Positions 12,126 to 40,900 of a stretch of 64,000 nucleotides of DNA are shown in pieces. The stretch is taken from the NCBI GenBank assembly GCA_000165345.1, contig CM000431.1:928001-992000 (forward strand), written 5' to 3'. The position numbers were made by a program, and so were the translations under genes. A model generated the notes under the pieces. It ran no database searches. It was not told the DNA's origin and worked only from the letters and a program-made list of their open reading frames with translations. Each line of letters begins with the position of its first letter. Within the stretch, counting starts at the first letter, position 1.

Positions 12126-14225
12126 ATGGTAGAGACTTTTGCATTCAATGCTGATATTCAGCAGCTGATGAGCTTGATCATCAATACTTTTTACAGCAAT
12201 AAGGAAATCTTTTTGAGAGAATTGATTTCTAATGCCTCCGATGCTTTAGACAAGATCAGATATGAATCCTTGACTGATCCAGAACAATTAAAGAGTAATG
12301 AGGAAATGCATATTAGAATTATTCCAGATAAAGTTAATAATACTTTAACTATTGAAGATTCTGGTATTGGTATGACTAAGAATGAGCTTATTAACAATTT
12401 AGGTACTATTGCTCGTTCAGGTACAAAGGCATTCATGGAAGCAATCCAAGCTGGTGGTGATGTTAGTATGATTGGTCAATTTGGTGTTGGTTTCTATTCT
12501 GCTTATCTTGTTGCTGATAAAGTTACTGTAATTACCAAACATAATGGTGATGAACAATACATTTGGGAATCATCAGCTGGTGGTTCATTCACTATTACTA
12601 ACGATACATCAGACAATAAGTTACAAAGAGGTACTAGAATCATCTTACACCTTAAGGAAGATCAATTAGATTATCTTGAGGAGCGTACCTTGAGAGATTT
12701 AGTAAAGAAGCACTCAGAATTTATCTCCTTCCCAATTGAACTTTCTGTTGAGAAGACTACAGAAAAAGAAATCACCGATTCTGATGTCGATGAGGAGGAA
12801 GAGAAGAAGGAGGGTGAAGATGGTGAAGATGCACCAAAAATTGAAGAAGTTAAAGAGAAGGAACCAAAGAAGAAGAAGATTACAGAAGTAACTCAATCGT
12901 GGGACTTACTTAACAAGAATAAACCAATCTGGATGAGAAAACCAGAAGAAGTTACTTTTGAAGAGTACTCTTCTTTCTATAAATCAATCTCAAATGATTG
13001 GGAAGATCCTCTCGCAGTTAAACATTTCTCAGTTGAGGGTCAATTAGAATTTAAGGCAATTCTCTTTATTCCAAGAAGAGCTCCATTTGATCTCTTTGAA
13101 ACCAGAAAGAAGAGAAACAACATTAAGCTTTATGTACGTAGAGTATTCATCATGGATGACTGTGAAGAATTGATCCCAGAATTCTTAGGATTTGTTAGAG
13201 GTGTTGTTGATAGTGAAGATCTTCCATTAAACATTTCAAGAGAATCATTACAACAGAATAAGATCCTTAAGGTCATCAAGAAGAACATTGTTAAGAAATG
13301 TTTGGAATTGATCACTGAAATTACTGAAAAGCCTGATGATTACAAGAAATTCTATGAACAGTTCAGTAAGAATCTTAAGTTAGGTATTCATGAAGATACT
13401 ACCAACAGAAATAAGATCAGTGAGCTCCTAAGATATCAAACATCAAAGAGTGGTGAGGAACTCATAAGCTTAAGAGAATATGTTGATAGAATGAAGGAAA
13501 ATCAAAAGGAAATTTACTACATTACTGGTGAATCTATTCAAGCAGTACAAAACTCACCATTCCTTGAGAAGCTTAGAAAGTTAGATTATGAGGTAATTTA
13601 CATGGTTGACCCAATTGACGAATACTGTGTACAACAAATGAAGGAATTCGATGGCAAGAAGTTGAGATGCTGTACTAAGGAAGGTCTTACTTTAGAGGAA
13701 ACTGCTGAGGAGAAGGAAGCCTTTGAAGCTCTCCAGAAGGAATATGAGCCTTTATGCCAGTTAATTAAAGAGGTTCTTCATGATAAGGTTGATAAGGTTA
13801 TCACATCTCAGCGTATTTCTGACTCACCATGTGTACTCGTTACATCTGAATTTGGATGGTCTGCAAATATGGAACGTATCATGAAGGCTCAAGCTCTTAG
13901 AGATACAAGTATGACATCTTATATGATGTCCAAGAAGACTATGGAAATTAATCCATATAACTCTATCATTACTGAGCTCAAGACCAAGATTGCCAATGAC
14001 AAGTCTGATAAGACCGTCAAAGACTTGATTTGGTTACTCTATGATACTTCCCTCCTTACTTCTGGTTTCTCATTAGAAGATCCAACTCAATTCTCATCCA
14101 GAATCAACAGAATGATCAAGCTCGGTCTTTCTATTGATGAGGAAGATATTGTTGATGATCTCCCACCTCTTGAACCAGTTAATGATGCAGAGCTCCAAGC
14201 ATCTAAGATGGAAGAGGTTGACTAA
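12126..14225 (+). CDS. HSP90: Cytosolic heat shock protein 90 (HSP90/HSP83).
   Basis: 699-aa single-exon ORF. It has the GHKL ATPase N-domain ([39 protein letters not shown]), a charged linker, and the conserved middle and C-terminal domains. It ends with the cytosolic Hsp90 co-chaperone docking motif MEEVD. Confidence 0.95.
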
Positions 14226-14689: not shown

Positions 14690-17116
14690 TTATACAGGAA
14701 TATGTATATCTAATCTTCCAGCTCTAGTAATACTTTCATCTAGCTCAAGGATATGTTTGTTTGAAAATGCAATCACAATAACGTTTTGATTCTTCTTTTC
14801 AACATTATCTAAACAAAGAAGAAGAGTAGTGAGTAGAGTTCTGGAGTCATTGGAATTTTTTGAAGAAAATTGATCATCATTTTGGTTGTTTTCCAAGAAT
14901 ATATTAGACTGAATTAAGTTTTGTGAAGTCCAATTCAAATTAAACATATTTTTAATTTTTTCTTTATGTGAATTAATTCTAAAAGAAATATCATTAAATA
15001 AATTTGGTGAATAATTAATGAAATTTTGGTTTAATTTGGACTCTTTGGAATCATTTGTTAAGCTTAAATCCATATTTTCTTGAAAAGAGAAAGTATCTGT
15101 TTTATTATTTTGAATTATAAAATTATTTGAAATTACATCAATTCCTTCTAGAATAAGTATTGTAGGAATATTTGTATTGAATAGTTGCCTAATATTTTCT
15201 TCAGACTGTCCAACATAAGGACTTAATAAAGTAAGTATATGTTTTTGTACAAGCTTGTAATTAATATATTGTTTTTGGATATATTTAATTAATTCTTGCT
15301 TTACAATAGAAAGTTTACTTCCATTTAAGTTATTTCTACTATTATATATAAGTATTCTTGGAGTAAATTGTTGATTCATTATTTGGTTTATTTTACTATA
15401 TTCATTCTCAAACAATTTGTAAATTATTAATTGATCATTAACTTGTTGTAATATTGATTTAATACTCTCATCTTTAAAACTAAAATCTCCAGTATTTAAA
15501 GTATTAATCTTCCCATCAAATTTTTCCACAGCTCTATTCTTAAATAATAGCATTTCTTTCTCTTGCAAATAATTATTATATAATGTATTATCAATTACTA
15601 AATTTCTAAATAATATTTCCACTACTTTATAAATTAATTTTTTATCTGAAACTCCAAAACATACTCTAATTATCCAATTCACCATATTAATTCCTGTTAA
15701 ATCATCTCCATTTTTTAATAAATCTTCCTTTAATTGCTCAAAACTATGTTTGTTCAAACTTTGATAATACATTAATTCCAAAAATGTGTCATAATTTTTA
15801 TCTAATAATAAAATAGATATATATTCATTCAATTCCTTTTTTAACCTCAAATATCTACAAAGTAACTCCTTTTCATCCAATTCAGTCTCATTATTAATTT
15901 GTTCTAATAGTAATAATTTAACATTTACATGCGAACACTTGGCGCCAAATGTGTGGAAATTATTTCTTGTCATTAAACATTTTAGGTGGTAAGTATTATG
16001 AAAAGAAGGTTTGGAAGAAATATTATTTTTTTTAAAGATATTAACAAGTTCTGGTTTTTGTGAGTCATTGTATTCAATAAGAATCAGTTTTTTAATGCAA
16101 GTAAATTTTGAAAAATGTTCTTCTAGTTGATCAATTAAATTGTCATTAATTGACAAATTTGAAAAAGATGTAATATAATTATACATAAATATATTAATGG
16201 AAATTATATTTTCCAAATTTGAAATATTAAATCTTGTGATTTCCTCTAAAATATCTTTAACTCTCTCAATTATGTTATTTCTAATATTTTTCAAAACTTT
16301 TATGGAAATATTATTCTCCATTACGTATTTATTCAGAATATACGTAGTATCTAAATAAAAATAACTTAAAGCAATATTATTATTATTAATAATGTTTTTA
16401 ATATTATTAATATTTTTAACCATAAAACTTTCAATTTCTAAATTTTTTGATGTATTATTATTTGTGTTAGAATTAAAGTTTAATTGATTCACATTTGGGA
16501 TAATTAATAGGTTTGAAATAAATTTCATGTAGGTATTCTGAAATTCTTCAGAAATTAGTTTATTCTCTTTAATATATTGAATTTGAAAAAAGTAGTATTT
16601 TTCATTTATTAAAAAAGGTAGGATTAAATTATTGAGTATATCTTTTAAATTATATTCTGTTGAAATAAATTTTAAGTAGTAATAGAATTGCCTTTTTAGA
16701 CCCTCCACTAATAAATTCTTATAATTTAGTAAAAATATATCTGATTGAGTAGTTAATTGTGAAAAAAGAGGTCCAGAAAACACAATATCTGATATAATTG
16801 TTCTATTTGTAATATTTAAGCAATTCTCATTTTTTATATATTTAATATATCCTTTATTAAAATGGCTAATACAACTTAGCCCAGAATGAATATACACTAT
16901 ATCTTCTTTACAAGGATTAATATCATTATTAATTTTAAAAAAAATAAGAAATTTCAAATTTTCCAAATTTAACTCGAGTAAAATAATTCTATCATTCTTA
17001 ATATCATCAAAATCATTATTAGTCAATTTATTCACTAGTTCTCTACTAATTAAAGAAATCCCATCTTTGAGGTCTTCTCTAACCTCGATATTGCATGGTA
17101 TTATATATCTTTTCAT
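14690..17116 (-). CDS. AAA-family ATPase-like protein of 808 aa with a single degenerate AAA module. It is a putative pseudo-ATPase.
   Basis: The C-terminal approximately 200 aa align to a classic AAA domain. SPYVGQSEENIRQLF corresponds to the YVGESEKxVRxLF region after Walker A. ILILEGIDVI is Walker-B-like. LLTTLLLCLDNVEKKNQNVIVIAFSNKHILELDESITRAGRLD matches the second region of homology and keeps the arginine finger. The position where a GPPGxGKT Walker A is expected reads NSRNNLNGSKLS, which is non-canonical. The N-terminal half is unrecognised. The protein ends 6 aa after the SRH, so it may be truncated or have an unrecognised 3' splice. Confidence 0.45.
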   Translation of the reverse strand: MKRYIIPCNIEVREDLKDGISLISRELVNKLTNNDFDDIKNDRIILLELNLENLKFLIFFKINNDINPCKEDIVYIHSGLSCISHFNKGYIKYIKNENCLNITNRTIISDIVFSGPLFSQLTTQSDIFLLNYKNLLVEGLKRQFYYYLKFISTEYNLKDILNNLILPFLINEKYYFFQIQYIKENKLISEEFQNTYMKFISNLLIIPNVNQLNFNSNTNNNTSKNLEIESFMVKNINNIKNIINNNNIALSYFYLDTTYILNKYVMENNISIKVLKNIRNNIIERVKDILEEITRFNISNLENIISINIFMYNYITSFSNLSINDNLIDQLEEHFSKFTCIKKLILIEYNDSQKPELVNIFKKNNISSKPSFHNTYHLKCLMTRNNFHTFGAKCSHVNVKLLLLEQINNETELDEKELLCRYLRLKKELNEYISILLLDKNYDTFLELMYYQSLNKHSFEQLKEDLLKNGDDLTGINMVNWIIRVCFGVSDKKLIYKVVEILFRNLVIDNTLYNNYLQEKEMLLFKNRAVEKFDGKINTLNTGDFSFKDESIKSILQQVNDQLIIYKLFENEYSKINQIMNQQFTPRILIYNSRNNLNGSKLSIVKQELIKYIQKQYINYKLVQKHILTLLSPYVGQSEENIRQLFNTNIPTILILEGIDVISNNFIIQNNKTDTFSFQENMDLSLTNDSKESKLNQNFINYSPNLFNDISFRINSHKEKIKNMFNLNWTSQNLIQSNIFLENNQNDDQFSSKNSNDSRTLLTTLLLCLDNVEKKNQNVIVIAFSNKHILELDESITRAGRLDIHIPV

Positions 17117-21722: not shown

Positions 21723-24200
21723 ATGACCGGTAAATGCCTAGATTCATTATTTAATGAGGAAGATGATATGAATGAAATTATTGAAACAGAGGATTCAATT
21801 ATAGATTCAAAGGAAACAATTATTAATGAAAAAATATCCCTAGATAGTATTTTAGGAAGAGAATTAATGAGTAATGTTAAGAAAGATGAGAAAAGATCCA
21901 AAAAAATAAAGTTAGACTCAAATATTCAACAAAAGTTATCGTTTAATTTTGGGACTGGAAACACACCTTCTAGTGTTAATAAAAGTAAGCCTACAAAGCT
22001 TGAGAAAGTTCCAGAGAATGAGGAAAGTGGAGATTCTTGTACCAAGAATGGATCTGAAAGTTTAAGTAAAAAGATAAAACCTAGTAATGCAGGCCTCTTT
22101 TCACCATTTTCTATTAATATTACAACAGGAGATGAAGACATTCAAAGTCCAATGTTTGATCCTTGTAATATTAGCAAGGAAAAGATAATGGCAAAAGGGA
22201 AAAGTAATTCAATATTATTTTCTGTGTTGACTGATGCCTTTTCAAGGATAGAGCAACTAAAAGGAAGTGGATCTGGTAGCAAAAAGGGTTGTATAGTAAT
22301 CCTAGCAAATTTATTTCGACTGATAATACATCATAATCCAAGTGATTTAATTGATGCAGTTTATATTTGTATGAATAAAGTTGCTCCTGATTATGAAGGG
22401 AAAGAATCAGGAGTTGGTGATTCTATTCTAATAAAATGTATATCAGAGTCTTCTGATAAGTCAGAGAAGAGAATTAAAGAGGATCAAATTAGTGGAAAAT
22501 TTGAAGATTTAGGTGAAATTGCAGCAATCTGCAAGAAACAAATGAGGCTTCTTTTTGAACCACAAAGATTAACAATACACGATGTTTATAGTGACTTGTA
22601 TTCACTTACGGAGATCACAGGTAAACAATCTCAACAACTTAAGAAAGATAAGATCAAGAAATTATTAGTTTCTGGCAAACAGGATGAAGTTAAATATATC
22701 GTAAGATTTTTACAGGGAAGATTAAGAATTGGAATACAACAAACCACTGTTTATCAGGCATTAGCAAGCGCATTTGTGTTAACAAAGAATATTCCAGGGG
22801 ATAATTTGGCTAGTTTTTCTGATTATAGACTTGCAAAAAATGAGAAAAAATATAAGAATCTACAAGAATTAGATTGCGAAATACTCGAAATGGAAACCTC
22901 ACTTAGATCATCTCTTTGTCAGCTTCCAAATATCGAAAAGATCATTAATGTTGCCATTCAAGGAGCCTCTAGCGATGAAATTTCTGCTAAATGCAAACTT
23001 ACCACTGGAATACCTTGCGAACCTATGCTTGCAAGACCTACAAAAGGCATTCAAGATGTTCTAAATAGATTTGAAAACTTTCTTTTTACTGCTGAGTATA
23101 AATATGATGGTGAAAGAGCTCAAATACACGTATATAAGGACAAATCTAATAAAAGAGTGATTAAAATCTTCACTCGTAATTTAGAGTCTGCTACTGATAG
23201 GTATCCAGATTTGATTCAATATTTAAATCAATCACTCAATTCGAGTGTAGAAGATTGTATTTTAGACTCTGAAGTTGTTGCATACTCTAAAAGTGAGGAT
23301 AAGATTTTACCATTTCAAGTTCTGAGTACAAGAAAAAGAAAGAATGTTGCTTTTGATGATATACAGATACAAATATGTTTAATGCTTTTTGATTGCATGG
23401 GGTTTAATGGAGAATCTTTACTAAAAAAGTCACTCTTTGAAAGAAGACAATATTTGAGAAAATGTATCAATGAGGGTCAATCTGAGTATATTAAATTTAC
23501 TACAAGTACTGAAACTAATAAACTTGATCATTTAGATTCTTTCCTTTCTGAATCTATTGAAAATAATTGTGAGGGACTCATGGTTAAGACTTTGCATGAT
23601 AATGCAAGCTATGAACCTTCAAAAAGATCTCTTAACTGGTTAAAAATTAAGAAAGATTATGTGGATGGACTTACTGATAGTATTGATGTTGTTCCTATTG
23701 CAGCATGTTATGGAAAAGGTAAAAGAAATGGGGTTTTTGGAACTTTTCTATTAGCTGTTTACAATACAGAGGAGGAGGTATATGAAACTGTATGTAAGGC
23801 AGGAACAGGATTTTCTGATGAAATTTTACAATCGTTATACACAAGTTTGAAAGACCATATTATTGCAGAAGGTGCCCCAAAAAGTTACTATAAGTTTGAC
23901 TCAAGTGGACAATTATCTTCACTCAAACAAGATGTTTGGTTTGAACCAAAATTTGTATGGGAAGTTAAAGGTGCTGATTTATCACTATCTCCTGTGCATA
24001 CAGCAGCTATAGGCACTATTGATGAAAACAGAGGAATAGGACTTCGATTTCCAAGATTTATAAGAATTAGAGATGATAAGTCTCCAGAACAAGCTACTTC
24101 ATCAATTCAAATTATGGAAATGTATAACAGTCAATTGATAACTAATAATACAAAGAACGAGACCAATTTCAGTGATGATCAATTCCAAGAAGATGATTAG
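21723..24200 (+). CDS. LIG1: ATP-dependent DNA ligase I.
   Basis: 825 aa. It has the adenylation motif I, KxDGxR (EYKYDGERAQIHV), and downstream ligase motifs (CEGLMVKTL, NWLKIKKDY). The N-terminus is unstructured and has a PIP-like region. Domain order matches Lig1. Confidence 0.9.
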   Translation: MTGKCLDSLFNEEDDMNEIIETEDSIIDSKETIINEKISLDSILGRELMSNVKKDEKRSKKIKLDSNIQQKLSFNFGTGNTPSSVNKSKPTKLEKVPENEESGDSCTKNGSESLSKKIKPSNAGLFSPFSINITTGDEDIQSPMFDPCNISKEKIMAKGKSNSILFSVLTDAFSRIEQLKGSGSGSKKGCIVILANLFRLIIHHNPSDLIDAVYICMNKVAPDYEGKESGVGDSILIKCISESSDKSEKRIKEDQISGKFEDLGEIAAICKKQMRLLFEPQRLTIHDVYSDLYSLTEITGKQSQQLKKDKIKKLLVSGKQDEVKYIVRFLQGRLRIGIQQTTVYQALASAFVLTKNIPGDNLASFSDYRLAKNEKKYKNLQELDCEILEMETSLRSSLCQLPNIEKIINVAIQGASSDEISAKCKLTTGIPCEPMLARPTKGIQDVLNRFENFLFTAEYKYDGERAQIHVYKDKSNKRVIKIFTRNLESATDRYPDLIQYLNQSLNSSVEDCILDSEVVAYSKSEDKILPFQVLSTRKRKNVAFDDIQIQICLMLFDCMGFNGESLLKKSLFERRQYLRKCINEGQSEYIKFTTSTETNKLDHLDSFLSESIENNCEGLMVKTLHDNASYEPSKRSLNWLKIKKDYVDGLTDSIDVVPIAACYGKGKRNGVFGTFLLAVYNTEEEVYETVCKAGTGFSDEILQSLYTSLKDHIIAEGAPKSYYKFDSSGQLSSLKQDVWFEPKFVWEVKGADLSLSPVHTAAIGTIDENRGIGLRFPRFIRIRDDKSPEQATSSIQIMEMYNSQLITNNTKNETNFSDDQFQEDD

Positions 24201-24625: not shown

Positions 24626-26404
24626 CTACAAGATATGATGGTCATTAAACCTGAAAGAATACTTTGCAATTTCTTGATAAAGATAAGATAATGTCATTTT
24701 ACATATTTTAACGTCAGCTTCTATTGGTAATTTTAACTTTTTTTGATTCTCTTTTTCAAAGACTTCAAAACCAGATAGTTGAAGAATCTCAATTCCTTGA
24801 CTAAATTGGCCAATCGAATTTTTAAATATTTCATTTTCAAGACTTACTATTCTATAGAAGGGGTTATTTGGAAATGAAATAACATTTTTAAGTATAATTA
24901 CAATATTTTTAAGACATTCATAAATCTTTTCTTTATTTTTGGAAGCTCTTTCTGAAAAAATACTTTGAATAATTTTAATAACTTTTTCTTCAAATTCAAG
25001 ATCAACAACTTTATCAATTGGAAATTGAATAATAGGCCTAACAGGACGAAGTTTTTCTGGAGTTGATTTAGTTTTATAATAAACCTCCTCAAACAAATCA
25101 AGAATAAATCCATCAAAAGTGAATCCAAATTTTCTTTCTGTAATAAATTGAATAACTTCAGATGGTTTATAACCTAATTCAATTAAAAATAATGCTACAA
25201 TATTAAGTGAATGGTAATCGCCAGTGTTATCTACTAATAATACAGATTTACGTAAATGATGTGTTTGTCTAATAATATTAACAACTCCCCAATAATCCGG
25301 AGTTTCTGTATTATAACAAGGAACGCTATAATATTTAATTTTTGAATTTTTTGGGAAATTGAAGATTTCTGGCTGATTTGTCAAATTAACAATTTTTGAT
25401 ATGTTAAACTTATCTTTATATTTATCCCAATCATTATGTACAAGTATTCCAATATCACAAGTAAGAACACAAAAGTGAGTGAGAATAGGAAACAAAGGAA
25501 TAGATTCACATGCAAATCTGGATGGTAAATTATTATCAGAAAATTCTGAACAAATTGGATTTTCATCAATACATCCCTCATATCTTGGACTAAGTGAAGC
25601 AAATCCTCCAGCTAAAATGAAAATACGCTCAGGTTTACAAGAACAACAATTCATTATATCAAGAAAAGTCTGTGATTCATGTGAAACACGATCACCTCTT
25701 ATTGAAGCATTTCCTTCCCAAAGATGATCAAAAAGTACAATTACCTTATTATTAATTTGTTCAAGAAGCCAACTATTTATTGTTCTTGAATATCTTAATA
25801 TTGCATCTGAATATTTACTACTATTAATTTTTTTAAAAGCTAGCTCATTACTACTTTCATAAATAGTAGTGCTTTGCCTGGAAAAGCTTCTAAAAGGTTG
25901 TAAAGCTCCTATTACAGTTCTTTTCATTAAAGCTCCTTTTGATGCAAGTCTAGCCATGGCTTCCTCTTCTTCACTATTGGCTTCTAATACTTTAACATCA
26001 AAATAAAAACTTTGTGAATCAACAAAAGTAATACCACAATTACCAAGTGGATTTGAATTCTTTGATTGAGCCCAAAGATTAAAGAACATATTTGGTGTTA
26101 TATATCTAACTTTAAACCAAGAATTTTCTACTTCAATTTCTTTCCATTGAAAAGTTAAATCTTCTAAAGATTTCCATGGTCTTGGTATTCTTTCTTTAAC
26201 AGATTTACTATTAAATGATGGAATTTCTAATACTTTTTCTTTTTTATGCTTAATTTTCTCACAACCATCATTTGATTTTGCATTTTTTTTATTTATTTCG
26301 GAATTATCATCATTTTCAGGAACTTTTTCTTTAATTATTGAATCATTCCTCAAAGACACATCATTTCTTGAATCTAATTTGGACTTGGAACAATTAGAAC
26401 CCAT
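24626..26404 (-). CDS. Putative pseudophosphatase (MK-STYX-like) with a rhodanese/CH2 domain, a catalytically inactive dual-specificity-phosphatase-like domain, and a C-terminal PUB domain. The N-terminus has a myristoylation motif.
   Basis: 592 aa. The N-terminus MGSNCSKS has Gly2 and Ser6, with Cys5 available for palmitoylation. The DUSP-like segment VLLVDNTGDYHSLNIVALFLIELGYK aligns with VLVHCxAGxSRSxT(I/V)xxAYLM. The catalytic Cys is replaced (HC becomes DN) and the Arg is replaced by His. The C-terminus (LKNIVIILKNVISFPNNPFYRIVSLENEIFKNSIGQFSQGIEILQLSGFEVFE) matches the PUB/PUG consensus KYRxIxxxNxxFxxxVxxxxGxxxxLxxxGF. Confidence 0.45.
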   Translation of the reverse strand: MGSNCSKSKLDSRNDVSLRNDSIIKEKVPENDDNSEINKKNAKSNDGCEKIKHKKEKVLEIPSFNSKSVKERIPRPWKSLEDLTFQWKEIEVENSWFKVRYITPNMFFNLWAQSKNSNPLGNCGITFVDSQSFYFDVKVLEANSEEEEAMARLASKGALMKRTVIGALQPFRSFSRQSTTIYESSNELAFKKINSSKYSDAILRYSRTINSWLLEQINNKVIVLFDHLWEGNASIRGDRVSHESQTFLDIMNCCSCKPERIFILAGGFASLSPRYEGCIDENPICSEFSDNNLPSRFACESIPLFPILTHFCVLTCDIGILVHNDWDKYKDKFNISKIVNLTNQPEIFNFPKNSKIKYYSVPCYNTETPDYWGVVNIIRQTHHLRKSVLLVDNTGDYHSLNIVALFLIELGYKPSEVIQFITERKFGFTFDGFILDLFEEVYYKTKSTPEKLRPVRPIIQFPIDKVVDLEFEEKVIKIIQSIFSERASKNKEKIYECLKNIVIILKNVISFPNNPFYRIVSLENEIFKNSIGQFSQGIEILQLSGFEVFEKENQKKLKLPIEADVKICKMTLSYLYQEIAKYSFRFNDHHIL

Positions 26405-26471
26405 TCTTGTAATACAAAAGATATTGATGATATAATTTTATTATTCAGGTTGAATTTTAATGGTAGTGAAA

Positions 26472-26512
<41 letters not shown>

Positions 26513-26822
26513 TCAACGAAACTTAACCTAAACTAATTATTATTATTCTTTTTTTTAATAACAATAATAATAATAATAATATAACTAAACTAGTATAAAT
26601 TTTTCAACTCAAATTTAGTAAAGTTATAATACAAGTATTTATTTCAAATATATTTACAGATTTCACTGGATCCAAATTTTGAATAATTATACAGCTCCAA
26701 TCTTGTTTATATTTGGAATTACCAAAGAAGAGTTAGTTATAGCGGAAATTATTGATAAGAATTATATAAAATATATATACATATATTATTTATTTATATA
26801 AACATATATATATATATATATA

Positions 26823-26856
<34 letters not shown>

Positions 26857-27857
26857 TATATATTTCAAGAAGGTTTGGAATCGGATTATAATTTCAAAAT
26901 TGCTTGGTTTATTGAAACTATTTATTACATATATATAATACTAATTTCCATATGCAGTCTTCTAAATTATAACAATGTTATTATTATTATTATTATATAT
27001 TACCTAAAGTTGGAATATACATAACCAAATTTGAACCTTATCAGTATATATGTAATTTTTTGTTTAAATAAAATACCAATTAATTATTAAAGTAATTTTC
27101 CAGTCTCCTTATTATGTCTTTAGCTCATTTAAATTGACTAGGCAAGTTGTTAGCCTCAAGAAATTTTGGGAATATTACTTTATAATAAAATGTTATGTTA
27201 ATCCCTCACCTAAATTAATCAAGTGCAAAAAAGGCCTCTTTTTACATTAAATTAAAAATTTATAATTAAATATTACTTCTTTATAATCCATTTATTCAAG
27301 ATATTAAAAAAGGCGGTATGCATGCAATTAGTGATATTATCATTTTGTGCTAATACCGGTATTAATAAAAATAATAATAATAAATAATATATAATGCAAT
27401 TATATATTATTATATTTATGGAAAAATTTTGAAATTAAAGAAAATATATTAATAAAGTTTTAATTCTAAATTTTGAAATTACATTAAAAAATTCCTGAAA
27501 AAAAAAATAATATATATATTTATATAAAGAGTTGTCAATTAATGAATTTTCATTTAATTCAATATTTAATTAATATTGATCGTGTGTTTTTTGAGCGGGA
27601 AAATTTTCCATATCTAGAAAAATTAAAATAATTTGGCAAATTAATATTAAAAATATTTTTTGATAATAAGAGGGGTATGGTGGGAATTTTGGTCAAAAAG
27701 AGCAAAAGAGAAGAAAGAAAAATATATTTTTTAAAAATTTAATTAAAGTTGAAATAAAATATAAATTTTATATATTAATATTAAGAATTTATTTGAAGAA
27801 TATTTAATAATTTTAATTTATCGAAATAAACTTCTCATTATTTGTAATTAAAGAGAA

Positions 27858-30800
27858 ATGACAACATTTTCTGTAGTATCAGAAAGACCAGATTTTCCTA
27901 AATTGGAAGAAGAAATCCTTGAATATTGGCGAAAAATCAATATATTAAAACTAACTCTTGAAAAAACAAAAGGAAGACCAAATTATTCATTTTATGATGG
28001 ACCTCCATTTGCTACAGGATTACCACATTATGGTCATATACTTGCAGGTACTGTTAAAGATGTAGTTACAAGATATGCAACTCAAAAAGGATATTATTGT
28101 GAAAGAAGATTTGGATGGGATTGCCATGGATTACCAGTAGAACATGAAATTGATAAACAATTAAATATCACAAGTAGAGAAGATGTTTTAAATAAAGGTA
28201 TAGATTTTTATAATGAATCATGTAGATCAATTGTATTAAGATATACTCAAGAATGGAAATCAACTGTTGAAAGAGTTGGAAGATTAATCGATTTTGATAA
28301 TGGTTATAAAACTATGGATTTAAATTTCATGCAAACTGTATGGTGGGTATTTAAACAACTTTTTGATAAGAATCTTGTTTATAGAGCTTATAGAGTAATG
28401 CCATATTCTACAGCATGTGCTACACCATTATCTAATTTTGAATGTAATTTAAATTATAAAGATGTTAATGATCCATCTGTAATTATTACATTTCCATTAT
28501 TAGAAGATCCAAATATTCAATTCTTAGCATGGACAACAACACCATGGACACTTCCTTCAAATGTTGCAATTGCTGTACATCCTGAAAAGAAATATTTATA
28601 TTTTAAAACTAATCATTCTAATGATATTACTTATGTTGTTGCTGAATCCAGATTAGAATGGGTACTTTCTGAACTTAAAATTAAAGAATATAATATCATT
28701 TCTGATTGTATTGGAGCAGAATTACATAATAAAAAAGTTATACCTTTATTTGATTATTTTAAAAATCATGAATCAAGTCATCAATTCTGGAAAATACTTG
28801 CTGATAATTATGTTACTGATAATACTGGTACTGGTATTGTACATATGGCTCCTGCTTTTGGTGAAGATGATTATAGAGTTTGTGTAAGTAATGGTATTAT
28901 TGATAATCATGGTACAAATTTACCATGTCCTATGGATTCTAATGGTAGATTTACTGAACCTGTTAATGATTTAAAAGGAATATGGTTTAAAGATTCTGAT
29001 AAAATTATTAAACAAGAATTAAAAAAAAAATCCAGATTATTAACTGATAATACATGTATGCATTCTTATCCTTTCTGTTGGAGATCTGATACACCTTTAC
29101 AATATAGAGCTGTTCCTTCTTGGTTTATTAATGTTGAATCTTTAAAAGATAAATTATTAATTAATAATGAAAAAACTAATTGGATTCCAAATTATGTTAA
29201 AGAAAAAAGATTTCATAATTGGTTACAAGATGCTAGAGATTGGTGTGTTAGTCGTAATCGTTTTTGGGGAACACCTATACCTATATGGGTATCAGAAGAT
29301 TATACAATTATTAAATGTATTGGTAGTATTGAAGAATTAAAATCTTTAGCATCCAATTTAAAAGATAAAGAAATTAATGATATACATCGTCATTTTATTG
29401 ATTATATTGAAATTCCTGATCCAAGAGGAAATAATTATCCACCATTAAAAAGAATTGAAGAAGTTTTTGATTGTTGGTTTGAATCTGGTTCTATGCCTTA
29501 TGCATCCATTAATTATCCATTTGAAAATCAAGAATTATTTAATAATATATTTCCTGCAGATTTTGTTGGTGAAGGTTTAGATCAAACAAGAGGATGGTTT
29601 TATACATTAATGGTATTATCAACAGCATTATTTGATCAACCAGCTTTTAAAAATATTATTGTTAATGGTTTAGTTTTAGCATCTGATGGTAAAAAAATGT
29701 CAAAAAGATTAAAAAATTATCCTGATCCATTAGATATTGTTAATAAATATGGTGCAGATTCTTTAAGATTATTTTTAATTAATTCACCAGTTGTTAGAGC
29801 AGAAACTTTAAGATTTAAAGAAGAAGGTGTAAAAGATGTTATTAAAGATGTATTACTACCATGGTATCATTGTTATCGTTTTTTTGTACAAGAAGCTATT
29901 AGATATGAAAATACTAATCATAATATAAAATTTAAATCAAATAAACAAGTAATAAAGAATACTAATAATATTATGGATAAATGGATATATTCTGAAGCTC
30001 AATCATTATTAAAATTTGTAAAGACTGAAATGGATGCTTATAGATTATATAATGTAACACCAAGATTAATATCATTTTTAGATACACTTTGTAATTGGTA
30101 TGTACGTTTAAATAGAGATAGAATGAGAGGTATTTATGGTATGAATGATACAAAGAATTCTTTAGAAATACTTTATCAAGTATTAATGTTAACAGTAAAA
30201 TTATTATCTCCATTTATACCATTTACATGTGAATTATTATATTCAAATTTAAAGAATGCTTTAATTGATGAATTAGAAGAAGAAAAGCCAGAAACTGTAC
30301 ATTTATTATTAATTCCAGAAGTTGAAGAAGAATTTATTGATAAAAAGATTGAAGAAGCAATAAATCAATTAAGAGAAATTATTGTAATGGGGAGAAATTT
30401 ACGTGAAAAAAAGAAAGTTAGTGTTAAAACACCACTAAAAAGTATTAATATTGTACATAAAGATAAATCAGTATTAGATTATTTAGTAGAATCAAAATTA
30501 ATAAATTATATTAAAGAAGAATTGAATATATTACAAGTAATAACAGATAATAATTCAGAATTTGAAAAGATTACAAAATTAGTAGCAACTCCAAATTTTA
30601 AAGTATTAGGTTCAAGATTAGGAAAATCTATGAAAGATGTAACAAATTATATTAAGAATGAAATGAATAATGAAATTATTCAACAATTTTTAAAAGATGG
30701 AACAATAAAGATTCATGGTTATGAATTAAATTTGGATGAAATAATTATTCAAACAGTTGTTGATAATAATTCTGTAATAGATATGAATAATGAGATAATT

Positions 30801-31160
30801 TATGAAGGTAGTTCTCAATTTGTGATTGGTTTAGATTTTACTTCTGATATAGAATTTGAGAATATGGCTTATTCAAGAGAATTAGCAAATAAGATTCAAA
30901 AGATACGTAAAGAGAAGAATATGGATCCAGATGCAAATGTAACAATTTATTTACAATTAATTTCTAATAAGAATGAATCAAAGAAATTTCATACAGTTAT
31001 GACATCTTATAATGATTATTTACAAAAGATTATTAGAAAGCCAATAAAGGAGATTTCAGATTCAGAATTATTGAATAGTATAAAAGATAGAATACTATTT
31101 GAATGTGAGATTGAAGTTGGAATGGATGATAAAGTTAATGTAATAGTGATAAAGAATTGA
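27858..31160 (+). CDS. Cytoplasmic isoleucyl-tRNA synthetase (class I).
   Basis: 1100 aa. It has the HIGH motif (PPFATGLPHYGHILAG) and the KMSKS motif (KMSKRLKNYPDP). The overall architecture, including the CP1 editing domain and the anticodon-binding C-terminal part, is typical of eukaryotic IleRS. Confidence 0.9.
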   Translation: MTTFSVVSERPDFPKLEEEILEYWRKINILKLTLEKTKGRPNYSFYDGPPFATGLPHYGHILAGTVKDVVTRYATQKGYYCERRFGWDCHGLPVEHEIDKQLNITSREDVLNKGIDFYNESCRSIVLRYTQEWKSTVERVGRLIDFDNGYKTMDLNFMQTVWWVFKQLFDKNLVYRAYRVMPYSTACATPLSNFECNLNYKDVNDPSVIITFPLLEDPNIQFLAWTTTPWTLPSNVAIAVHPEKKYLYFKTNHSNDITYVVAESRLEWVLSELKIKEYNIISDCIGAELHNKKVIPLFDYFKNHESSHQFWKILADNYVTDNTGTGIVHMAPAFGEDDYRVCVSNGIIDNHGTNLPCPMDSNGRFTEPVNDLKGIWFKDSDKIIKQELKKKSRLLTDNTCMHSYPFCWRSDTPLQYRAVPSWFINVESLKDKLLINNEKTNWIPNYVKEKRFHNWLQDARDWCVSRNRFWGTPIPIWVSEDYTIIKCIGSIEELKSLASNLKDKEINDIHRHFIDYIEIPDPRGNNYPPLKRIEEVFDCWFESGSMPYASINYPFENQELFNNIFPADFVGEGLDQTRGWFYTLMVLSTALFDQPAFKNIIVNGLVLASDGKKMSKRLKNYPDPLDIVNKYGADSLRLFLINSPVVRAETLRFKEEGVKDVIKDVLLPWYHCYRFFVQEAIRYENTNHNIKFKSNKQVIKNTNNIMDKWIYSEAQSLLKFVKTEMDAYRLYNVTPRLISFLDTLCNWYVRLNRDRMRGIYGMNDTKNSLEILYQVLMLTVKLLSPFIPFTCELLYSNLKNALIDELEEEKPETVHLLLIPEVEEEFIDKKIEEAINQLREIIVMGRNLREKKKVSVKTPLKSINIVHKDKSVLDYLVESKLINYIKEELNILQVITDNNSEFEKITKLVATPNFKVLGSRLGKSMKDVTNYIKNEMNNEIIQQFLKDGTIKIHGYELNLDEIIIQTVVDNNSVIDMNNEIIYEGSSQFVIGLDFTSDIEFENMAYSRELANKIQKIRKEKNMDPDANVTIYLQLISNKNESKKFHTVMTSYNDYLQKIIRKPIKEISDSELLNSIKDRILFECEIEVGMDDKVNVIVIKN

Positions 31161-31842: not shown

Positions 31843-33399
31843 ATGGGCAAACGTAAGGAATTAGAAGAGATGAGTGACGGCAAGATTGAGACTGTAATAA
31901 AGCCAGAAAGTAAGTCTCAGCCGATTGACACTTCAAACTGGCCGTTATTATTAAAGAATTATTCAAAGTTGAATGTTAGAACAGGGCATTATACTCCACT
32001 TCCATATGGTAATTCGCCTTTGAATAGAAATTTGGCAGATTATTTGAGTTATGGAATAATTAACCTTGATAAGCCAGCAAATCCATCATCCCATGAAGTG
32101 GTTGCATGGATTAAGAAGATCTTAAGATGTGAAAAGACAGGTCATAGTGGTACATTGGATCCAAAAGTTACAGGCTGTTTATTGGTTTGTTTAAATAGAG
32201 CAACAAGATTGGTAAAATCACAACAGAGTGCAGGTAAAGAATATGTCTGTATTGTAAGATTTCACTCAAGTGTTGGCGGTAAGTCAGCAGTGAGTAGATG
32301 TCTTGAAACTTTGACAGGAGCCTTATTTCAGAGACCACCAGTAATTTCAGCTGTTAAACGTCAGCTTAGAGTACGTTCAATATATGATTCTAAGCTTTTG
32401 GATTATGATGAAAAGAGGAACTTGGCTGTTTTTTGGGCAAAATGTGAGGCAGGGACATATATAAGAACAATGTGCGTTCATATGGGGTTGCTTTTAGGGG
32501 TTGGGGCTCATATGCAAGAATTAAGAAGGGTAAGAAGTGGTTGTTTATCAGAAAATGACAACATGGTAACAATGCACGATATTTTGGACGCTCAGTATAT
32601 GTTAGATAACTATAGAGATGAATCATATTTAAGACGTATTATTTCACCATTAGAATTACTTTTAACAGATTTACCAAGAATTGTAGTTAAGGATTCGTGC
32701 GTTAATGCAATTTGTTATGGCGCAAAACTTATGATTCCTGGTGTATTGAGATTTGATAATGGAATAGATGTTGGTACCGAAGTTGTAATGATGACAACAA
32801 AAGGTGAAGCTATAGCAATTGGTGTTGCTCAAATGACTACAGCTGTTATAGCTAGTGTAGATCATGGAGTAGTTGCTATAATAAAGAGAGTTATTATGGA
32901 GAGAGATACATATGATATGAGATGGGGACATGGTCCTAGAGCTTCTGAAAAGAAGAAGCTTATTTTAGGTGGAAAGCTTGACAAGCATGGAAAGCCAAAT
33001 GAGCAAACACCTGAATCCTGGCTTAAATACGAGGGTTATATTCCAAAGCTTACGGGCGATCATGATGATCAAAACGATGAGGGGAAAGATATTACAGGAT
33101 CAGGATTGGAATCAGAATCTAACTCTAATATAGAATCCAGCTCATCAAAAAAGAGAAAAGAAAAGAAAGAAACAAATGATGAGGAATCATCTTCATCATT
33201 TTCTTCTAAGAACAAAAAAGAAAAGAATAAGAGAAAGAGTACTGAGCCATTAAGTGAAAATGGAAGCAGTAGTAGCAGTAGTGATAGTAGTAGTAGCAAC
33301 AGCAGTAGTGATGATGAAAAGAGTAAATCCAAAGGGAAAAAGTCATCCAAAGATAAATCAAAGAAAAAAAAGAAACACAGTCGTATCAGTGAAGACTAG
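31843..33399 (+). CDS. CBF5: H/ACA snoRNP pseudouridine synthase Cbf5/dyskerin, with a K/S-rich C-terminal tail.
   Basis: 518 aa. The N-terminal motif [21 protein letters not shown] is dyskerin-like. The TruB catalytic region ([16 protein letters not shown]) and a PUA domain follow. A lysine/serine-rich tail is typical of Cbf5. Confidence 0.9.
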
Positions 33400-34288: not shown

Positions 34289-35734
34289 ATGAGGTTGCAA
34301 TCCAAACAAAAATATCAGTTTCCTGATTTGGAGATGGGAGAGCTGATGAATGAGTTGGACATGTTAGGATTTGAAGTTGGAAGTAACTTTTGGGAAAGTA
34401 TTAACCATGAAATAGCAGTAGAACTTTATATGAACTGCTTGTCAATAGCATTAGAGATAGATACAGAGGATATTCGACCGGAAGAGTTAATAGGACAACT
34501 TCCATCTTCAGCTGCTGGAATAATATCTGAAAATGGAAAGAGTCAAATTAAACCAATAGGAAATTTGAGATTTTTACGTTACTGTAAGATCCTTTGGGTA
34601 ATGATAGGAATCGATGATTTTAGTATGAATGACATTTATAGACCAACTCCAGATAGAATTTATTCGTTCTTATGTGGATTTGTGAATTTGATGCGTTTCA
34701 AAGAAGATCGTTGGATGACTTATAAGAATGAGTTTTATGAAATTGAGGAAATTTTGGACTCTGTAGACAAATCTAATGAACAGATTAAACAAAAAAAAGA
34801 AGATTTGAATAATATTAGAGTAAGATATAACGAACAAAGTGGTGAAATTGCAAATAGGAGAAGGGATAATCAGGAATACCAGGAAAAGATGAGATCTTTG
34901 CACGGAGAATTTTTGCAAAATCAACAAGAACTTAAGAGATTAACACAGTCAGAGCATGATTTAAAGGAGCAGCTTAAAGATGTTGAGTTTAGGATTACCA
35001 CTGGAAATCAAGATATACAAGATTTAAAGGATCAAGTTGTTCAGTCCCCAGAAAGACTCAGAAATACTCTGGAAGAATTGAATAAATCTTTAGAGAATGA
35101 AAGAAAACAAATTGATCAAATTAGTATCAAAAATAATGAACTAAAGGAAAGACAAAATCTATTGCAAAAGACTGAAAAGAGGCTTGGTAAGGCAAAGACA
35201 TTCCTTGAACAAACTATTAGCGGAATTAAAGATGCAAACAATATTAAGCAATCAATCAAAGAAATCGAGCATCATATTGAGAAGGATAAATGGACAATTG
35301 AGCAAACTACAGAAGAAGAAAGGTTGCTTTTGCAAACTGTGGAACAGATTTCACTAAGAATTCAAAATAATCAACAACACTATGAGAGTTTAATTGAGGA
35401 GGCACAGACTTTACTTAATCAAGAGAAACAAAAGTTTGAGCAAGGACAGGAATTCCTTGATGTTCAAAGCAGTGAAGCATTTTCATTTGAGCGACAAGCA
35501 GAATTAATGGAAAAAGAGATCCAGAATTTAAAAGTATCTCATGAAAAGGCAATTAATGCACTCAATATTCAGCATAGCCAACTACTAAATGTTCTTACCA
35601 ATTATAAGAAACACTTAATCAGCAAACTGAATGACATAAACTCGAAGTATAACTTAAAGCTATTAGATGAAACATCCAAGGAAAATTCAACAATAAACTC
35701 TATAGAAAACACTATTGTGATGCAGCACAACTAG
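34289..35734 (+). CDS. NUF2: Kinetochore protein Nuf2-like (NDC80 complex subunit). It has an N-terminal calponin-homology-like domain and a long coiled coil.
   Basis: 481 aa. The N-terminal approximately 150 aa resemble the Nuf2 CH domain, including FSMNDIYRPTPDRIYSFLCGFVNLMRFKEDRW (compare the Nuf2 pattern DLxxPxxxRxxxxLSAxINFxxFRE). The rest is heptad-rich coiled coil. The size is right for Nuf2. Confidence 0.45.
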   Translation: MRLQSKQKYQFPDLEMGELMNELDMLGFEVGSNFWESINHEIAVELYMNCLSIALEIDTEDIRPEELIGQLPSSAAGIISENGKSQIKPIGNLRFLRYCKILWVMIGIDDFSMNDIYRPTPDRIYSFLCGFVNLMRFKEDRWMTYKNEFYEIEEILDSVDKSNEQIKQKKEDLNNIRVRYNEQSGEIANRRRDNQEYQEKMRSLHGEFLQNQQELKRLTQSEHDLKEQLKDVEFRITTGNQDIQDLKDQVVQSPERLRNTLEELNKSLENERKQIDQISIKNNELKERQNLLQKTEKRLGKAKTFLEQTISGIKDANNIKQSIKEIEHHIEKDKWTIEQTTEEERLLLQTVEQISLRIQNNQQHYESLIEEAQTLLNQEKQKFEQGQEFLDVQSSEAFSFERQAELMEKEIQNLKVSHEKAINALNIQHSQLLNVLTNYKKHLISKLNDINSKYNLKLLDETSKENSTINSIENTIVMQHN

Positions 35735-37792: not shown

Positions 37793-40700
37793 ATGGACTT
37801 GAATGATGTGTATGATGAATTTGGTAATTATATTGTGAAAGATGATAACGACTCAGAAGGAAGCGCAGATTGGGTGGGATCCGAAGAAACTTCAGATCCA
37901 GAAGATAGCCACAACAATAAAGATGGTGAAATTTTTGATCATGCCCAAAAAGAAGAGTCTGAAGATTCAGGAAGTGATATTTTTTCTGAAAATGAGTGGC
38001 AAAAGCATAAAGGACAAGTCAAAATACTTAATAAACAAAGCATAAAAGACGAGGATCATGAAATGACTCAGGAAACTGATGATGATAATAAGATTGTGCA
38101 ATTTGAAGATAAAGAGTATTATCCAGACCCATCTGATGTATATGGTGATGACGTTGAAATATTGGTACAAGAGGAAGACCACCAACATATAGATGAACCT
38201 CTCATTTCTCCCTTAAAAGAAAACAAATTTGACTTAATTGAAAAGAACCTTAAGGAAATGGAAACAACATTTTCTTATGAATTCTTGAGAGATTTAATGG
38301 ATAATTTGGAATTTGTTAGAAATATCTGTTTTATTGGTGAAATTCATTCTGGAAAAACCACATTCTTAGATATGTTGATTAAAAATACTCATTCTTACAA
38401 AGGAGATAAGAAAAATATTCCTTTACCGGAGAGATATTGTGATTCAAGAAAAGATGAACAGGATAGAGGAATTAGTATTAAAGCTTCTCCAATATCTTTG
38501 GTACTACCAAACTCTATGGATAAATCTTTCTTATTCAATATTTTAGATACCCCTGGTCATGTTAACTTTGTGGATGAAGCATGCATTTCAGTAAGAATTT
38601 CAGAAGGAGTTATACTTTTCTTGGACTGTGTTATTGGTTTAACTAAACAATTAGAAAGATTGCTTCATTATTGCTTATCAGAAGGGAAGAAGGTTGTTCT
38701 AGTAATTAATCAAATTGACAGACTTGTCTTAGAGTGTAGACTACCTCCATATGATGCTTATTTTAAACTTAAGCATTTAATCTCTGCAGTTAATAACTCT
38801 ATTTTGGAATTTGCATCTATTCATGGATTTAATACTGATGAAACTAGAAATTTATTATTTGGTCCAGAAAGAGGTAATGTTGGATTTGCATCTGGTAGAT
38901 ATAACTTTTTCTTCACTTTAAATTCATTTGCTAGAAAGTATTTAAAACATAATGGTATTACCAATAACTGTATTCTGATTGAAAAATCTCAACAATTATC
39001 TTTCAGATTATGGGGAGATTATTATTTTAATAAAGAAAATAATTCATTTGAAACAGACTCAAATGTTTCTCAAGATAGATCTTTTGTAGAATTTATCTTA
39101 AATCCAATATATAAGTTACTTGGATATACGGTATCGGAAGAAGATGATAAATTATCAAGCTTTTTGAAGACGGTTGGAATATATCTGACAAAGAAAGAAC
39201 TTAAATTAAATGTTAAGGAACGTCTTGAAATTGTATGTAAACGTTTCTTTGGAAATTCTGCCTCATTTACTGACTTTATCACAAAAAATATCCCAAATCC
39301 TATTCAAAGTGCTAGTGATAATGTTGAGAGAATATATACTGGGCCAATTAATGATAGAATATCATCATTTATGAGAAAATATGAAAGAAATAATTGTCCT
39401 TTAGTTGTTTTTATTATAAAACAATTCCACTCTGAAGATATGGAATCATTTTACTCATTTGGAAAGATATTTTGTGGGACTTTATCAAAAGGTGATCGTG
39501 TTAAAGTTCTAGGTGAATCTTTTTCCAAAGATGATCCTGAGGATTTTACTACGAGATATATTGATAATCTTTGGATCTTACAAAGTAGGTATAAAGTAGA
39601 AGTTACAAGTGTACCTGCAGGAAATTGGGTACTAATTTCAGGTCTTGGAAGCTCTGTAACAAAACCATGTACATTAATTGGACATAATTCATTTATTAAG
39701 GATGATGAAATATATCCTTTACGTAATATTAGGCTTTTGAATAAGAGTGTAATAAAGTTAGCTCTTGAACCACATAATCCAGCAGATTTACCAAAAATGC
39801 TTGAAGGGTTAAAAAGTATTTCAAAAGCTTACACATGTTCAGTGACAAAAGTAGAGGAGAATGGAGAACATGTTATGTTTGGTACAGGAGAATTACAGAT
39901 GGATTGTATGATGCATGATTTAAGATGTTTATATGGAAATTTGGATGTAAAAGTTTCAGATCCAATGGTACATTTTTGTGAGACTGTTTTAGAGAAATCA
40001 GTAGTGAAATGTTTTGGAGATTCAACTAATGGATTGAATAGACTTTATATTACATCAGAACCTTTAGATCGAGGTATTTCAGATGAATTGGAGAATGGTA
40101 TAATGAAAGTTTCAATTTCAGATACTAAAGATCCAAAATATTATGGTAATTTATTAGCAGAGAAATATGGTTGGGATAAGCTTGCAGTAAAGTCATTATG
40201 GGCATTTGGACCAGATCCTAGCATAGGAAGTAATGTTTTATTGGATGATACTTCTTCTATAACAGTTGATAAAAAACTTTTATATGATGTTAAGGATGAT
40301 ATAATTCAAGGATTTAACTGGGCAGTTAAAGAAGGTCCTTTACTTGAAGAGCCAATAAGAAATGTAAAATTTAAGATACTTGATGTAAACTTATCTTCTG
40401 ATAAAGTTAGTAGGGGGACAGGGCAAATAGTTCCAGCATCTAGAAGAGCTTGTTACACATCGATGTTTTTAGCATCTCCAAAGATTTTGGAACCAATTAG
40501 TCTAGTAGAGATAATATGCCCATCAGGTTTGGATGAATTTATTAATAATATAGTATCAAAAAGAAGAGGCCATGCAGGCAAGGAAATTCCAATTCCTGCT
40601 TCACCATTAGTTACAATACTAGCATTTGTTCCAGCAATAGAAACCTTTGGATTTGAAACAGATTTAAGAATTCATACAAGCGGACAAGCATTTTGTACAA

Positions 40701-40900
40701 GTTGTTTCGACCACTGGGCAATAGTTCCAGGTAATCCATTGGATAGGAATATTTCATTAAGACTTTTAGAGAAAGCTCCTATTCCACATTTAGCTAGAGA
40801 TTTTCTTCTTAAAACAAGAAGAAGAAAAGGTCTAAGTGATGATGTTAATATTCAAAACTTTATCACTTGTCCAGAACTTATTAAAGCTTTGAATTATTAA
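37793..40900 (+). CDS. SNU114: U5 snRNP 116-kDa GTPase (Snu114/EFTUD2), an EF-2-like spliceosomal GTPase.
   Basis: 1035 aa. The acidic N-terminal extension begins MDLNDVYDEFGNYIV, the Snu114 hallmark. Then come the G1 motif GEIHSGKT and the G3 motif LDTPGHVNF. EF-2 domains II-V follow (ELQMDCMMHDLR..., GQIVPASRRACYTS). Confidence 0.8.
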   Translation: MDLNDVYDEFGNYIVKDDNDSEGSADWVGSEETSDPEDSHNNKDGEIFDHAQKEESEDSGSDIFSENEWQKHKGQVKILNKQSIKDEDHEMTQETDDDNKIVQFEDKEYYPDPSDVYGDDVEILVQEEDHQHIDEPLISPLKENKFDLIEKNLKEMETTFSYEFLRDLMDNLEFVRNICFIGEIHSGKTTFLDMLIKNTHSYKGDKKNIPLPERYCDSRKDEQDRGISIKASPISLVLPNSMDKSFLFNILDTPGHVNFVDEACISVRISEGVILFLDCVIGLTKQLERLLHYCLSEGKKVVLVINQIDRLVLECRLPPYDAYFKLKHLISAVNNSILEFASIHGFNTDETRNLLFGPERGNVGFASGRYNFFFTLNSFARKYLKHNGITNNCILIEKSQQLSFRLWGDYYFNKENNSFETDSNVSQDRSFVEFILNPIYKLLGYTVSEEDDKLSSFLKTVGIYLTKKELKLNVKERLEIVCKRFFGNSASFTDFITKNIPNPIQSASDNVERIYTGPINDRISSFMRKYERNNCPLVVFIIKQFHSEDMESFYSFGKIFCGTLSKGDRVKVLGESFSKDDPEDFTTRYIDNLWILQSRYKVEVTSVPAGNWVLISGLGSSVTKPCTLIGHNSFIKDDEIYPLRNIRLLNKSVIKLALEPHNPADLPKMLEGLKSISKAYTCSVTKVEENGEHVMFGTGELQMDCMMHDLRCLYGNLDVKVSDPMVHFCETVLEKSVVKCFGDSTNGLNRLYITSEPLDRGISDELENGIMKVSISDTKDPKYYGNLLAEKYGWDKLAVKSLWAFGPDPSIGSNVLLDDTSSITVDKKLLYDVKDDIIQGFNWAVKEGPLLEEPIRNVKFKILDVNLSSDKVSRGTGQIVPASRRACYTSMFLASPKILEPISLVEIICPSGLDEFINNIVSKRRGHAGKEIPIPASPLVTILAFVPAIETFGFETDLRIHTSGQAFCTSCFDHWAIVPGNPLDRNISLRLLEKAPIPHLARDFLLKTRRRKGLSDDVNIQNFITCPELIKALNY

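Follow-up and report, generated by a model that had tools for sequence, protein, structure and literature searches.

A conserved, probably membrane-anchored pseudophosphatase with a PUB domain in Cryptosporidium and its apicomplexan and chromerid relatives

The window analyzed here is a 64,000-nucleotide stretch of Cryptosporidium DNA (GenBank assembly GCA_000165345.1, contig CM000431.1, positions 928,001 to 992,000 of the forward strand), and all coordinates refer to it. Its reverse strand carries a gene for a 592-residue protein that belongs to a conserved, uncharacterized family of putatively acylated, MK-STYX-like pseudophosphatases with a PUB domain, restricted to the Apicomplexa and chromerids. 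The PUB domain is a docking domain for the unfoldase Cdc48/p97. We propose, with middling confidence, that the protein is a lipid-anchored scaffold on the cytosolic face of a membrane, joining a dead module of the MAP kinase phosphatase (MKP) type to a PUB domain that docks Cdc48/p97. A previous sequence-only reading of this DNA had described a lipid-anchored fusion of a rhodanese domain, an inactive dual-specificity phosphatase (DUSP) domain and a PUB domain, and as an observation this is confirmed as a whole. Its interpretation holds in part: the architecture and the analogy to MK-STYX stand, whereas the register of the degenerate motif, the suggested phospho-recognition and the rarity of the combination do not. 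The features of the gene are listed here, with model confidence as the predicted local distance difference test (pLDDT) and PIM denoting the PUB-interacting motif.

24626..26404, reverse strand: complete, intronless coding sequence of 592 amino acids plus stop; the reading frame is uninterrupted and starts MGSNCSKS
26381..26404, reverse strand: N-terminal MGSNCSKS; Gly2 (with Ser6) is a predicted N-myristoylation site and Cys5 a predicted palmitoylation site
26150..26380, reverse strand: N-terminal linker, residues 9-85; low-complexity and poorly conserved (mean identity 51%, pLDDT 27-39)
25565..26149, reverse strand: rhodanese/CH2-like domain, residues 86-280, placed by hhalign to the Pfam-validated rhodanese domains of relatives and by alignment to STYXL1
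25760..25978, reverse strand: insertion in the rhodanese domain, residues 143-215; Cryptosporidium-specific and mostly helical
25673..25729, reverse strand: rhodanese 'active-site' loop DHLWEGNASIRGDRVSHES, residues 226-244; the top-conserved block of the protein
25067..25477, reverse strand: DUSP-fold pseudophosphatase domain, residues 310-446
25208..25243, reverse strand: degenerate P-loop VLLVDNTGDYHS, residues 388-399; register from alignments to DUSP10, Slingshot-2, DUSP16 and the metagenomic protein P0073
24680..24943, reverse strand: PUB domain (Pfam PF09409), residues 488-575; PIM-pocket positions I504, N507, Y517, S521 and N524

RESULTS

A conserved family in Apicomplexa and chromerids

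The source genome is C. parvum-like, and C. hominis CHM_3g3830 matches the window protein at 98% identity. Full-length orthologues of 570-614 residues are present in ten other Cryptosporidium species at 43-98% identity, the lowest value being that of C. muris (43%), and this is therefore a real gene under purifying selection. To find more distant relatives, we ran an exhaustive HMMER search with a Cryptosporidium profile against 1.84 billion representative proteins and obtained 264 matches, most of which cover the PUB domain only; several reach into the DUSP-like region. Further relatives came from a local scan with the family hidden Markov model. Members outside the genus derive from Vitrella brassicaformis (CEM31657.1), Chromera velia (Cvel_740), Digyalum oweni, the gregarine Ancora sagittata, a GHVP transcriptome, Eimeria magna (KAL8453821.1), Besnoitia besnoiti (PFH37299.1) and Logan and ENA assemblies, and Pfam detects a PUB domain in all of the out-of-genus relatives scanned. 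No Plasmodium or piroplasm member appears among the best 150 of the 264 matches. Profile queries of a word-indexed protein database added only Vitrella and returned no named Toxoplasma or Plasmodium orthologue. Toxoplasma presumably has one.

Judged from these alignments, this is an ancient family whose whole design is conserved over Cryptosporidium, gregarines, coccidia and chromerids. The sequence-only reading had called the joining of a pseudophosphatase to a PUB domain an unusual combination. This overstates its rarity, given the span of the family and the existence of a second DUSP-PUB fusion, described below. The Besnoitia orthologue (P0068) has 1119 residues and is twice as long; its rhodanese domain is interrupted by large low-complexity segments and a long tail follows the PUB domain, so the core design tolerates extensive expansion.

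Existing names reflect parts of the architecture. The C. felis record is entitled 'Protein-tyrosine phosphatase-like protein with PUB domain'; the UniRef names of the relatives are 'PUB domain-containing' or 'Rhodanese domain-containing'. We came across no account of the family when searching the literature for cgd3_3830, for PUB combined with rhodanese and phosphatase, or for PUB in Toxoplasma, Plasmodium or Cryptosporidium. One Cryptosporidium PUB protein mentioned in the literature, cgd1_1270 (PPPDE/PUB), is a different gene.

Domain architecture

Direct sequence evidence alone secures one of the three proposed domains. In the domain search that the sequence-only reading had recommended, PUB scored above its Pfam cutoff in the window protein, DSPc fell below threshold and Rhodanese went undetected; the latter two were reached via relatives. 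More generally, neither the window protein nor profiles built from Cryptosporidium alone revealed rhodanese when searched directly against Pfam and the PDB, and their DUSP scores were marginal; out-of-genus relatives were needed.

For the PUB domain, the Pfam match (PF09409) is 57.9 bits against a cutoff of 34.3 (E = 9.4e-16, residues 491-566), and 11 of 11 orthologues match as well. Profile matches in the PDB are UBXD1 and PNGase. Foldseek aligns the model of this region with the PNGase PUB domain (2ccq) at a template modeling (TM) score of 0.80 and a root-mean-square deviation of 2.1 Å over 98 columns, with UBXD1 and HOIP also matching. The model comes from a first full-length AlphaFold run on 11 Cryptosporidium sequences, which was poor overall (pLDDT 56) and was used for the PUB region only. 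Profile score and fold match together bear out the C-terminal PUB domain proposed earlier. In UBXD1 and PNGase, the PIM pocket follows the pattern YxxN(x)9Y plus K/RxxN (PMC6995525). The corresponding residues here are I504, N507, Y517, S521 and N524, so that three of the five (N, Y and N) are kept, and these three do not vary within the genus. At the first position, Ile is the most frequent residue among 207 PUB domains (Ile in 85, Tyr in 40, Leu in 31). Binding of this PUB domain to p97 is plausible by analogy, and C. parvum encodes a cytosolic-type Cdc48, cgd1_330 (PMC12604037). The protein also contains an internal PIM-like segment, EEVYY (residues 438-442), which we set aside since the model places it within the last helix of the DUSP domain.

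The DUSP-like domain is more divergent. Its Pfam DSPc (PF00782) score in the window protein is 13.1 bits versus a cutoff of 33.5 (E = 0.088, residues 329-433), and the Digyalum orthologue, at 29.2 bits (E = 9e-7), is also under the cutoff. When a profile of the segment was compared with PDB sequences, the top matches were exclusively DUSP10/MKP-5 catalytic domains, with marginal E values of 0.04-0.1; plain phmmer with the Digyalum domain reached Slingshot-2, DUSP10 and DUSP16 (E = 0.0025-0.006). The predicted structure has the three-dimensional fold of a DUSP, with a strand (387-392), a P-loop and a helix (398-409) at the signature position in the canonical topology and a loop pLDDT of 88-93.

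The P-loop register is identical in all alignments to true DUSPs: V391 stands for the His, D392 for the Cys nucleophile, G395 for the Gly, H398 for the Arg and S399 for the Ser/Thr. The catalytic signature HCx5R(S/T) thus reads VDx5H (V391-D392-x2-G395-x2-H398-S399). The inactive DUSP domain of the sequence-only reading survives this analysis, as the nucleophilic Cys and the His are gone and the Arg is replaced by His. Its statement that HC becomes DN was one residue out of register; the correct change is HC to VD, which puts Asp rather than Asn at the nucleophile position. HCx5R occurs in 0 of 19 tabulated family sequences. That a catalytic Cys had been overlooked can be rejected, as all 19 lack one at the signature position. 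The position aligned to the general-acid Asp of DUSP10 is variable (N, D, Y, G or E), leaving no conserved general acid. By sequence, this domain is a pseudophosphatase. MK-STYX (FSx5R) and STYX (HGx5R) both keep the phosphate-binding Arg (PMC8907265). Because this Arg is lost here and the loop holds two acidic residues (D392 and D396), the pocket is unlikely to bind phosphate, and the phosphotyrosine-like recognition suggested earlier finds no support.

The rhodanese domain was the least accessible to direct searches. The window protein gives no Pfam match to Rhodanese (PF00581) even at E≤10, and a profile search of the PDB with the N-terminal segment found nothing. In the relatives, the Pfam score is above the cutoff of 22.2 bits (Vitrella 40, Digyalum 33, Chromera 43), and hhalign links residues 208-279 of the window protein to these domains with 94% probability (E = 1.5e-7). 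The assignment is thus transitive and structural only. Taken together, the Pfam matches of the relatives, the hhalign result and a two-domain alignment to STYXL1 argue for the rhodanese domain that had been proposed. Asp226 occupies the position of the catalytic Cys of rhodanese and Cdc25. The insertion of ~70 residues (143-215) has no counterpart in the alignments of Vitrella or Digyalum; it is 84% conserved in the genus, with partly low pLDDT.

The 19 residues of DHLWEGNASIRGDRVSHES, which include an RGD tripeptide and sit at the position of the catalytic loop of rhodanese and Cdc25, are invariant or nearly so in all 11 Cryptosporidium sequences, even in C. muris with its overall identity of 43%. 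Residues 229-235 within this block are modeled at pLDDT <50. This combination of top conservation and low model confidence suggests a flexible binding loop. In the chromerid relatives, the loop at this position differs and is shorter.

At the N-terminus, all 11 Cryptosporidium sequences share Gly2 and Cys5, and Ser6 is nearly invariant. Dually acylated proteins (N-myristoyl plus S-palmitoyl) begin with Met-Gly, carry Ser, Thr or a small residue at position 6 and have a Cys among the first few residues, and MGSNCSKS has this pattern. MG starts followed closely by a Cys are also present in Vitrella (MGCGSS), Chromera (MGCASS), Besnoitia (MGQACT), the GHVP member (MGSCLS) and a Logan sequence (MGCQTS). 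The acylation motif noted earlier is therefore retained both within the genus and in distant lineages. The recurrent pattern fits N-myristoylation plus palmitoylation, and the protein is probably membrane-anchored.

Comparison with known proteins

The single best structural match is MK-STYX/STYXL1 (DUSP24), a pseudophosphatase of the MKP subfamily. Both the rhodanese and the DUSP-like domain align to STYXL1, in the order typical of MKPs and MK-STYX (N-terminal rhodanese/CH2, then C-terminal DUSP), and in this respect the MK-STYX-like arrangement of the sequence-only reading was well chosen. The differences are substantial, however. Identity is only ~15%; MK-STYX has FSx5R and keeps the Arg, whereas the window protein has VDx5H; and MK-STYX lacks the acylation motif, the PUB domain and the ~70-residue insertion in the rhodanese domain. 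As the substitutions differ (FS..R versus VD..H) and identity is so low, inactivation was probably independent of that in STYXL1, and orthology is not implied. STYX, the prototype pseudophosphatase (PDB 2r0b), is a single domain with HGx5R, residues that are replaced in the window protein. DUSP10/MKP-5, DUSP5 and DUSP4 are active MKPs with HCx5R and a general-acid Asp, all of which are replaced here.

For the C-terminal part, the closest counterparts are the Cdc48/p97 cofactors PNGase and UBXD1/UBXN6, which have the PUB fold and the pocket Asn, Tyr and Asn in common with the window protein. In these cofactors, PUB is paired with transglutaminase/PAW or VIM/UBX domains, whereas here it follows the pseudo-MKP module. 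The first pocket Tyr of PNGase and UBXD1 is replaced by Ile, as is common among PUB domains, and the basic residue by Ser.

One other protein combines a DUSP fold with PUB. P0073, a 405-residue protein from a JGI metagenome eukaryote labeled 'dual specificity phosphatase 12', has a canonical and, by its sequence, apparently active DUSP domain (DSPc 82 bits, VHCEKGQNR) and two PUB domains, but neither a rhodanese domain nor an MG-Cys start. Its DUSP domain shows no specific similarity to that of the family (hhalign E = 0.63), and so P0073 is likely an independent fusion, with the DUSP-PUB pairing having arisen at least twice. Phosphorylation of p97 Tyr805 abolishes PUB binding (PMC6995525), and P0073 hints at a wider functional link between tyrosine/dual-specificity phosphatases and the p97 tail.

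Genomic context

The window is AT-rich (GC ~0.20-0.36). The following neighbors are all intronless.

12126-14225, forward strand: Hsp90
21723-24200, forward strand: DNA ligase I
27858-31160, forward strand: isoleucyl-tRNA synthetase
31843-33399, forward strand: dyskerin/Cbf5
34289-35734, forward strand: Nuf2
37793-40900, forward strand: Snu114/EFTUD2

We rejected genomic context as a functional clue, as these are housekeeping genes with no evident link to the pseudophosphatase. In the 808-residue open reading frame at 14690-17116 on the reverse strand, the only Pfam match is at the very C-terminus, where residues 749-807 align to the latter half of an AAA ATPase domain (profile positions 68-128 of 131); Pfam does not detect the first half. 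Either this AAA protein is highly diverged or the gene model is more complex than one reading frame. The intergenic region 5' of the pseudophosphatase gene (about 26440-26900) has ~20% GC and long microsatellites, namely (AAT)n/(ATA)n at ~26470-26510 and 26560-26580 and (TA)n at ~26800-26860, which are potentially polymorphic markers.

DISCUSSION

These data best support a membrane-tethered adaptor that would work as follows. The protein would be held at a membrane by lipids attached to Gly2 (myristate, added co-translationally) and Cys5 (palmitate). The rhodanese/CH2 plus DUSP-fold module, having lost all catalytic residues, would act as a protein-binding pseudoenzyme comparable to MK-STYX/STYXL1. 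The C-terminal PUB domain would dock the tail of Cdc48/p97 or another PIM-bearing partner. In combination, these parts would bring the unfoldase to a client or complex associated with the membrane. The domain folds, the lost catalytic residues and the conservation of the design come from the analysis itself, whereas acylation, membrane localization, Cdc48 binding and the client are deduced from the roles of these modules in other proteins.

Several points weigh against this scaffold. In all Cryptosporidium species, the basic residue of the PIM pocket is Ser, Asn or His. In K/RxxN, this residue contacts the p97 carboxylate, and the K198E substitution in UBXD1 weakens binding ~3.5-fold; moreover, SPATA2 illustrates that PUB domains can bind PIM-less partners (PMC6995525). 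The strong conservation of D392, G395, D396 and H398, all four of which are invariant across Cryptosporidium, shows that the pocket has been retained for some use, which the scaffold model does not explain. Finally, we found no experimental or localization data for any family member in the literature searched. The alternatives considered below and the scaffold are not mutually exclusive.

The altered pocket raises the idea that the PUB domain has a partner other than Cdc48/p97, and that, as a membrane scaffold, the protein has nothing to do with the unfoldase. Alternative partners of PUB domains are documented (PMC6995525), as in the pairs SPATA2-PUB/CYLD and HOIP-PUB/OTULIN, and the loss of the basic residue in every Cryptosporidium species would fit such a switch. 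However, the core pocket N, Y and N are invariant, and the closest solved PUB structures belong to PNGase and UBXD1, which bind p97. Moreover, Ser, Asn or His at the K/R position is confined, in the scored family members, to Cryptosporidium. K or R is kept in Vitrella, Digyalum, the GHVP member, Eimeria and the fragments P0047 and P0041, with Glu in the Ancora fragment, and because most of these relatives keep the basic residue, the ancestral PIM pocket looks canonical. We consider a different partner rather unlikely.

A second idea is that the DUSP-like domain is repurposed rather than dead, in which case D392, D396, H398 and the neighboring H383 would make up a new site for catalysis or for a metal or cation in the P-loop pocket. 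This could be an Asp-based hydrolase or a pocket for a basic or non-phosphate ligand. Besides the invariance of the four loop residues in Cryptosporidium, D, G and H recur in Vitrella, Chromera and Digyalum, and Gly395 is mostly kept across the family. Asp occupies the nucleophile position in every family member scored except the P0047 fragment (Gly), a pattern that random decay would not predict; the P0041 fragment stops short of the P-loop and was not scored there. The confident modeling of the loop in canonical strand-loop-helix geometry also fits a functional site, and Cys-to-Asp mutants of PTP1B keep weak activity. On the other hand, coccidia and other gregarines have lost His398, which persists in Cryptosporidium, Vitrella, Chromera and Digyalum. 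In Besnoitia, Eimeria, Ancora and the GHVP member, Asp396 is lost along with it, so that, P0047 aside, the single Asp alone is universal. The general acid is unconserved, and we know of no PTP-fold enzyme with such a site. These considerations make a repurposed site improbable.

Alternatively, the rhodanese/CH2 domain may still dock a MAP kinase (MAPK), so that the protein would anchor a parasite MAPK at a membrane or sequester it, much as STYX anchors ERK in the nucleus, with the PUB domain secondary. The two-domain MKP-type architecture favors this idea, as does the fact that the rhodanese region is the best-conserved part of the protein (85-92%, with the rhod-C region at 92%). The domain also contains a conserved basic stretch, MARLASKGALMKRTV (residues 150-164), located where MKPs carry the kinase-interaction motif, a putative resemblance to the MKP-3 sequence. 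But MARLASKGALMKRTV lies inside the Cryptosporidium-specific insertion, is missing in Vitrella and Digyalum, and lacks an adjacent Arg pair. No such pair, as expected of the consecutive-arginine kinase-interaction motif, was seen in the CH2 domain, where no formal motif test was possible. MAPK docking therefore seems to us a doubtful account of the protein.

The most elaborate proposal, a long shot in our view, is an Apicomplexa/chromerid-specific Cdc48/p97 adaptor with a rebuilt phosphatase pocket, marked by the Asp at the nucleophile position and, in many lineages, a further Asp and a His, that might sense the Cdc48 tail or a client depending on phosphorylation or a metal. Given the effect of p97 Tyr805 phosphorylation on PUB binding and the existence of P0073, the ancestral enzyme may have removed phosphate from the p97 tail so that PUB could dock, and its inactive descendant may now hold or gate this tail at a parasite membrane, for instance the pellicle.

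Pseudophosphatases and Cdc48/p97 cofactors each form a recognized regulatory class, and a conserved, probably membrane-anchored protein joining the two is undescribed in the literature we searched. Its presence in Cryptosporidium, coccidia (Besnoitia and Eimeria), gregarines and chromerid algae indicates that the family predates parasitism, and its retention in highly reduced genomes argues for an important function. As the architecture was not seen outside the Apicomplexa and chromerids, the interface would be parasite-specific. The conserved Asp in the dead P-loop offers a natural case for studying what roles a pseudophosphatase pocket can take on after the phosphate-binding Arg is lost. If the membrane-tethered adaptor is correct, the gene would provide a genetically tractable entry point to Cdc48 targeting at apicomplexan membranes, and the protein would represent an old, unstudied adaptor rather than the oddity of a single genome.
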